Positions 60,424 through 61,223 of a stretch of DNA of 64,000 bases are shown here, piece after piece. The stretch is from Alloascoidea hylecoeti. Lineage: Eukaryota. Under the pieces are notes generated by a model. The model had not been told where the DNA came from and did no database searches. It saw only the letters and a list, made by a program, of their open reading frames with translations. Made by a program: the position numbers and the translations under genes. Numbering within the stretch: the stretch's first letter is position 1; each line of letters starts with the position of its first letter. The DNA lies in assembly GCA_001600815.1 (NCBI GenBank), contig BCKZ01000004.1, positions 496,001 through 560,000 of the forward strand, read 5' to 3'.

Positions 60424-61223
60424 ATGTCACTTAAACGTATTAACAAGGAACTAAATGACCTCGGAAGGTATGTTTGTTTTATATTCTACATCTTCACCAC
60501 TCATCCAAGATCATAAGGGAGGAGGATTTTATCTTCGTCGGATACCAAATGGATCAGATCAATCGACCGTTATGTACTGCGTGCGTATCTGACGTGGCGG
60601 AATCAGACGACTACAAACCTTTGGATCTTCAATCGGATGTAGTTGCAAATATGTTGAAGATTTTCGTTTGCTAATGTTAATTTCATATAGAGACCCCCCC
60701 TCTTCTTGTTCTGCTGGTCCTGTTGGCGATGATTTGTATCATTGGCAAGCAAGTATTATGGGACCCCCTGATAGCCCATATGCTGGTGGAGTTTTTTTCC
60801 TTTCCATTCACTTCCCTACAGATTACCCATTTAAACCACCAAAGGTATGTTTACCCCTTAAGTCATTATTATTTGAAGGATTACTTTTTTTTTCTTTTCC
60901 CTCACATTTTTGATTTTACATTTTACATTTTACATTTTTGATCTTCAATAGTTACTAATACGATTTTGAATTTGCAGATCAGCTTTACAACAAAGATATA
61001 TCATCCAAATATAAATGGTAATGGTAACATTTGTCTTGATATTTTAAAAGATCAATGGTCTCCAGCTTTAACAATCTCAAAGGTTTTACTATCAATCTGT
61101 TCATTACTCACTGATGCAAACCCTGATGATCCTTTAGTTCCAGAGATTGCACATTTATATAAATCTGATAGAGCTAAATATGAAGCTACTGCTAAGGAGT
61201 GGACCAAGAAATATGCAATCTAA
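60424..61223 (+). CDS. UBC4: Ubc4/5 E2; exons 60424-60467, 60691-60844, 60978-61223
   Basis: [61 protein letters not shown]; both donors GTATGT. Confidence 0.96.

Follow-up and report, generated by a model that had tools for sequence, protein, structure and literature searches.

A self-complementary, GC-richer block in the first intron of a UBC4-type gene of Alloascoidea hylecoeti, with a predicted closing helix that resembles a zipper stem in part

The UBC4 locus and its introns

The window analyzed here is a stretch of 64,000 nt from contig BCKZ01000004.1 of A. hylecoeti, and all positions are given relative to its first base. Near its 3' end it encodes, on the + strand, a UBC4-type ubiquitin-conjugating enzyme (E2) in three exons. 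The gene was modeled as follows.

60424-60467, + strand: exon 1, 14 residues plus 2 nt of an Arg codon
60468-60690, + strand: intron 1 (223 nt), starting with GTATGT and ending in TATAG
60669-60675, + strand: branch-site-like TGCTAAT within intron 1, assigned by motif only, presumed branch A at 60674, 7 nt past the 3' arm of the helix described below
60691-60844, + strand: exon 2, supported by its translation and by Pfam UQ_con (E 5.9e-16, profile positions 12-63)
60845-60977, + strand: intron 2, 133 nt, GC 0.25, unstructured, used as an internal comparison
60978-61223, + strand: exon 3 with the stop codon included, supported by its translation and by Pfam UQ_con (E 6.5e-28, profile positions 64-139)

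Downstream of intron 1 the translation resumes as (R)DPPSS.... In metagenome contigs, a degenerate pattern covering exon 1 and the 5' splice site found 118 fungal loci, most of them filamentous-fungus-like with approximately 50% GC. In 112 of these 118 UBC4 loci an intron interrupting the same codon could be resolved, ranging from 69 to 444 nt with a median of 141 nt, which argues that the position of intron 1 is old and that the splice model is sound. None of the 112 introns shares sequence with intron 1 (blastn, E <= 1). One contig from a sequencing run was identical to the window over 60250-60719, without variation inside the intron; three further runs contained nothing that covers the intron, and the remaining pieces obtained were exons of other organisms.

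The second intron, which sits after ...KPPK, has a different distribution. It is missing from five other yeast-type loci (L060, L018, L046, L008 and L040), where the reading frame is continuous for 132 aa, and the organism of the window therefore seems more intron-rich. By reading, intron 2 also contains AT-rich tandem repeats with an ACATTTT unit (60905-60935), and AT-rich short tandem repeats with units like TTTTATTAGAT lie 3' of the gene at 61520-61590. The UBC4 start codon is preceded, at a distance of 278 nt, by a tRNA-Leu(UAA) gene on the opposite strand (60064-60146, - strand).

A GC-richer block occupies most of intron 1

The preliminary description of this locus had proposed that a segment of intron 1, from 60490 to 60661, is GC-richer than the other introns, ends just before the branch site, and leaves about 50 nt of intron when folded away. 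These points were borne out. Measured per 20 nt, GC is 0.40-0.55 across 60488-60647 and 0.20-0.25 in the flanking parts of the intron. The excess has sharp limits, and the folded block and the GC-rich zone occupy the same part of the intron. The best 130-nt segment has a GC of 0.47; of 22,187 noncoding segments, 0.5% get as high. The whole window is 30% GC. Other candidate introns have a GC of 0.17-0.25, with the 59- and 66-nt candidates at 0.17-0.19 and intron 2 at 0.25. The end of the segment adjoins the branch site, TGCTAAT (60669) following the 3' arm after 7 nt, and the intron outside the block measures 22 + 29 = 51 nt. Since this remainder is approximately the size of the 59- and 66-nt candidate introns, the block gives the impression of a separate piece inserted into a small intron of ordinary size. 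The size of 50-88 nt that had been suggested for most introns of this DNA agrees with those two pattern-scan candidates, and intron 2, at 133 nt, lies outside it.

Several other features of the window came to light in these scans. The 59-nt candidate intron at 43922-43980 (- strand; branch motif AACTAAC, GC 0.19) would join ORFs of 1283 aa (43977-47828) and 1007 aa (40897-43920) into one very long gene. Long stretches without a convincing ORF, and with GC-rich patches, are present at 47900-51400 and 7200-9170. The patches (8204-9096, 48466-49065 and 49510-49651) contain 130-nt segments of 0.42-0.51 GC, and no Rfam family was found in them at gathering thresholds. A further candidate intron from the pattern scan, 47923-48369, was rejected, there being no gene at that position.

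Predicted fold of the block

The block had been described as one long nested hairpin built from eight ordered pairs of complementary segments. All eight pairs are present at the positions originally listed, but the hairpin itself is not the favored structure: over 60490-60661 it has an energy of -28.0 kcal/mol, compared with -49.5 kcal/mol for the minimum free energy (MFE) fold. Folding was carried out in three contexts, namely the block, the intron, and a pre-mRNA segment from 60380 to 60800. The four inner pairs (TCGTC/GACGA, GAT/ATC, CCA/TGG and TCAGAT/ATCTGA) had a probability of 0.0 in all three. The favored fold instead consists of a closing helix, formed by the four outer pairs plus ACT/AGT, around a three-way junction of small hairpins. 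The elements of this fold are listed below.

60413-60420, + strand: copy of ATCTTCA(A) in the 5' UTR, a rival of 60490-60496 for the TGAAGAT of the 3' arm
60490-60518, + strand: 5' arm of the closing helix, with ATCTTCA, ACT, CATCC, AAGATC and AAGG
60519-60617, + strand: looped-out interior, 99 nt, GC-rich, with three small hairpins predicted
60618-60661, + strand: 3' arm of the closing helix, with CCTT, GATCTT, GGATG, AGT and TGAAGAT

The closing helix is imperfect, with 25 bp and -22.2 kcal/mol, and is interrupted by loops of 2-9 nt. All 25 of its pairs are Watson-Crick, with no G-U pair. The outer pairs had probabilities of 0.76-0.98 in the block and pre-mRNA contexts. Within the interior, the strongest stem is 9 bp long (60537-45/60585-93) with a probability of 0.99.

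The copy of ATCTTCA(A) in the 5' UTR, 4 nt before the ATG, is a third copy of this segment and, in the pre-mRNA context, the preferred partner of the TTGAAGAT of the intron. In the 60380-60800 context, the MFE structure pairs 60413-60420 with this TTGAAGAT end, and the outermost pair of the closing helix drops to a probability of 0.20-0.24 with the 5' UTR copy competing.

Another suggestion of the preliminary description was an RNase III substrate. As a target of an Rnt1- or Dicer-type enzyme, the hairpin would serve to break down pre-mRNA left unspliced or the intron after its excision, and the presence of a long imperfect helix is the one point in favor of this. The fold lacks the canonical AGNN tetraloop capping a long stem. 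In a search that counted loops with at least four closing pairs, the only such loop was an AGGA at 60523, closed by 4 bp that include G-U pairs. The loops of 2-9 nt also break the helix, which would make it a poor Dicer substrate. We consider an RNase III target very unlikely.

Comparison of the fold with shuffled sequences

Whether the folding exceeds that of shuffled sequences, a check that the preliminary description had put forward, was answered differently for the block and for the intron. The block folds marginally better than its shuffles, with a z-score of -2.26 for the sense strand, where 3/200 shuffles folded equally well (18/500 in a second shuffle run). The antisense strand gave a z-score of -1.00 and -42.2 kcal/mol, compared with -49.5 kcal/mol in sense. 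The whole intron was not clearly better than its shuffles: the z-score was -1.40 when the interior was shuffled and -1.66 when the splice signals were held open (26/500 shuffles as good). The inner hairpin at 60530-60600 was not better than shuffles (z -0.68), and intron 2 folded with -9.3 kcal/mol and a z-score of 0.08. Paired positions have a GC of 0.50 and unpaired ones 0.28, a gap that is not unusual since 62/500 shuffles reached it. The overall stability of the fold, for the block and for the intron, is marginal.

The two arms considered by themselves gave a sharper result. Arm-versus-arm pairing has -22.2 kcal/mol compared with -11.7 +/- 2.9 kcal/mol for shuffled arms, and 4/2000 shuffles were as good; these limits were picked after seeing the fold, so that the figure flatters the result. 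With the same post hoc limits, 1 of 1724 arm placements with this geometry at other sites of the window was as stable. Despite these limits, the terminal inverted repeat is a real signal, and a repeat search also reports it. Its ends, 60490-99/60652-61, are 90% complementary over 10 nt, and a second segment, 60507-18/60618-29, is 83% complementary over 12 nt. The ends of the block pair beyond chance.

These data bear directly on the possibility that the pairing is a chance outcome of local composition and that neither a defined structure nor a role belongs to the block. The whole-intron z-scores, at only -1.4 to -1.7, the score of the inner hairpin and the ease with which shuffles reach the same gap in GC from paired to unpaired positions are all in keeping with it. 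The arm-versus-arm test, even with its post hoc limits, and the z-score of the block argue against it, and the GC excess is itself not explained by chance. A chance origin of the pairing appears improbable to us.

Search for an RNA or protein product

External stems that flank intron-encoded snoRNAs are described in the literature on box C/D snoRNA processing. In A. hylecoeti, similarly, a predicted intronic helix encloses a GC-richer interior of approximately 100 nt. The 99-nt interior could be a small RNA hosted by the intron, whether a divergent snoRNA or a member of an unknown class, with the closing helix as an external processing or protection stem. The exon-like GC of the interior, its size within the snoRNA range, and the fact that the closing helix flanks it exactly are what such an RNA would look like, and the snoRNA models that Rfam has for yeasts may overlook those of distant species.

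None of the snoRNA layouts looked for was found, and the intronic noncoding RNA of the preliminary description gained no support from these searches. A box C/D snoRNA would have a C box (RUGAUGA) close to its 5' end and a D box (CUGA) close to its 3' end, joined by a terminal stem; no C box was found in the block even by a loose pattern, and the one CTGA, at 60589, is without a partner. A box H/ACA snoRNA would have two hairpins, with an H box (ANANNA) between them and an ACA 3 nt from the 3' end; there is an ACA at 60613 and there are H-like hexamers at 60508, 60542, 60556 and 60605, which by inspection do not frame a pair of hairpins in any of the predicted folds. In the Rfam search, matches to the block stayed below the gathering threshold, with E values of 4.6-10 and 11-13 bits compared with cut-offs of 50-60; the only match above gathering threshold in the window was the tRNA-Leu at 60064-60146. 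The longest complementarity to rRNA was 9 nt, where at least 10 nt adjacent to a D or D' box was required, no complementary stretch abuts the CTGA, and 81/100 shuffles reached 9-10 nt; the rRNA used for these figures was contaminant eukaryotic rDNA (identified by the NS1 primer) and not that of the host, with the only full LSU coming from an unrelated eukaryote. Among the literature matches listed (open-access papers and bioRxiv), none described a UBC4-hosted snoRNA in yeast. The interior thus differs from intron-encoded snoRNA systems in that neither boxes nor guide complementarity nor an Rfam match turned up in it, and we regard an intron-hosted small RNA as quite improbable.

In the course of the rRNA search, at least 48 contigs (L119-L166) in bacterial and archaeal assemblies were found to carry the 5' end of eukaryotic 18S rRNA with the NS1 site. 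The presence of this site in contigs filed as prokaryotic indicates contamination with eukaryotic rDNA.

More speculatively, the interior could be a new, box-less stable intron RNA that the helix shields from exonucleases after debranching, or the helix could be a temperature-sensitive splicing switch in the gene of a stress-response E2. We give such ideas only a slight chance.

Hidden coding sequence was also considered. A stop-free frame of 71 codons (60459-60674, + strand) spans nearly the whole intron and is out of frame with exon 1. Compared with 1.84 billion representative proteins, the 71-aa translation had no match at E <= 0.001, and no Pfam match (E <= 10) was obtained in the six intron frames tested; the candidate was rejected.

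Comparison with zipper stems

Zipper stems are known from long introns of Saccharomyces cerevisiae, for example those of RPS17B and RPL7B, as described by Rogic et al. 2008 (PMC2536676) and Rangan et al. 2025 (PMC12350175). According to the rules of the latter paper, a zipper stem has at least 6 bp and no more than 5 bulged nt, stops 20 nt or more ahead of the branch point, and leaves a total linker of 42-85 nt (PMC12350175). The inner helix of intron 1 (60502-12/60624-39) has 11 bp, 5 bulged nt and a dG of -9.2 kcal/mol, and falls within the size rule as given there. Its start is also in agreement with that source: the outer helix begins 22 nt into the intron and the rule-conforming part 34 nt in, within the stem start criterion of PMC12350175. 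The linkers of the inner part, 34 + 34 = 68 nt, lie inside the 42-85 nt range of the same paper (PMC12350175). For the outermost 7 bp the linkers are 22 + 12 = 34 nt, outside the rules of at least 20 nt and at least 42 nt, which are derived from S. cerevisiae. If the S. cerevisiae steric model applies, these 7 bp would have to open on engagement of the branch site.

The stability of the stem did not stand out in the published type of control. In 500 shuffles, 57 had a stem as stable and 162 a conforming stem. The wider arm-versus-arm comparison is significant but lies outside the published criterion. The predicted distance from the 5' splice site to the branch point (19) was also not shorter than in shuffles (mean 16.5), and this structural distance does not discriminate because shuffles bring the two sites equally close. 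Of the readings offered in the preliminary description, splice-site juxtaposition is the one that the evidence fits, though weakly: the geometry agrees in part, and the zipper test is not significant against shuffles.

We also compared three long UBC4 introns from yeast-type metagenome loci. The first intron of L060, 444 nt long and with no sequence relationship to intron 1, gave a point in favor of the zipper reading: its zipper stem of 24 bp has -23.6 kcal/mol, and none of 100 shuffles matched it. The introns of L018 and L046, which have no stem beyond chance, count against that reading. The stem in L060 is near-perfect (intron positions 35-60/350-376), its contig is 31% GC, and the whole intron has a z-score of -2.01.

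Intron 1 thus resembles the known zipper stems in that the inner 11 bp of its helix fit the published positional rules and in that, as the literature describes for zipper stems, its sequence is not conserved with the introns of other species. It differs from those of S. cerevisiae in its host gene, which is non-ribosomal, in the yeast itself, which is a different, intron-richer and AT-rich one, in the length of the intron, only 223 nt, and in a looped-out part that is markedly GC-richer than the rest. The outermost 7 bp are too near the branch site for the steric rule, and the stability is not beyond that of shuffled controls. No hairpin of this kind in a UBC4 intron was found in the titles or abstracts of the matches listed from open-access papers and bioRxiv, all of which concerned splicing in S. 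cerevisiae.

Possible origin of the block

The lack of significance in the zipper test also agrees with a purely historical explanation. The block may be the neutral remnant of an insertion or a local duplication (for instance captured DNA, or an element of the foldback or MITE-like type), tolerated in the intron, with its inverted ends as a historical trace and no role in splicing. It has discrete edges and the imperfect terminal inverted repeat described above, as foldback and MITE-like insertions do, and its excision restores a normal-sized intron of 51 nt. Because the arms hold only Watson-Crick pairs, an inverted duplication at the DNA level fits them as well as selection at the RNA level. 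Short direct repeats are enriched within the block, with 11 repeated 6-mers compared with 4.1 +/- 2.5 in shuffles (17/1000 shuffles reached 11); ATCTTC occurs three times, and TCGGAT, TGGATC and TCAATCG twice each. The Watson-Crick-only arms, the direct repeats and the competing ATCTTCA copy in the 5' UTR all favor a historical, DNA-level origin.

Other hallmarks of foldback and MITE-like insertions were not seen on this DNA: no second copy of the block was found within the 64-kb window and no target-site duplication is visible at the block edges by reading. A GC of 0.47 in a 30%-GC genome would in addition need either recent arrival or selection. On balance, a neutral remnant is rather unlikely, though it comes second among the readings considered.

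A 14-nt stretch with GATCTTCAAT is common to introns 1 and 2 (60620-60633 and 60936-60949) at 93% identity. With a blastn E value of 5.8 it may be due to chance; in intron 2 it lies shortly upstream of the branch-site motif.

A possible role in splicing and its implications

The reading that we tentatively prefer, at less than even odds, is that of an insert-like block that closes on itself and acts in the manner of a zipper stem. Intron 1 would then be a short frame of approximately 51 nt carrying a discrete, GC-richer and insert-like block of 172 nt (60490-60661). The two ends of this block would pair with each other in the pre-mRNA, forming the imperfect helix of 25 bp with the 99-nt interior looped out. 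With the helix formed, the 5' splice site would lie 22 nt before it and the branch site 7-12 nt after it, so that the helix could work like a zipper stem and shorten the effective spacing from the 5' splice site to the branch point. The shortened distance would keep a long intron spliceable in a genome of otherwise short introns.

What this DNA shows is the complementarity of the block, its predicted fold, its composition and its geometry, and from them we infer that the helix may form in vivo, may help splicing and may be kept up by selection. What the preliminary description had observed is in this sense partly confirmed, and its interpretation is partly supported.

Either way, this is a modest observation at a single locus. 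Should the helix prove functional, zipper-stem biology would reach past the ribosomal-protein introns of Saccharomyces into a new setting, a housekeeping E2 gene in a distant, AT-rich yeast with short introns, and the case would show in what way an oversized intron is tolerated by such a genome. Should the block be a recent insertion, it would be a small example of intron growth by a self-folding insert.
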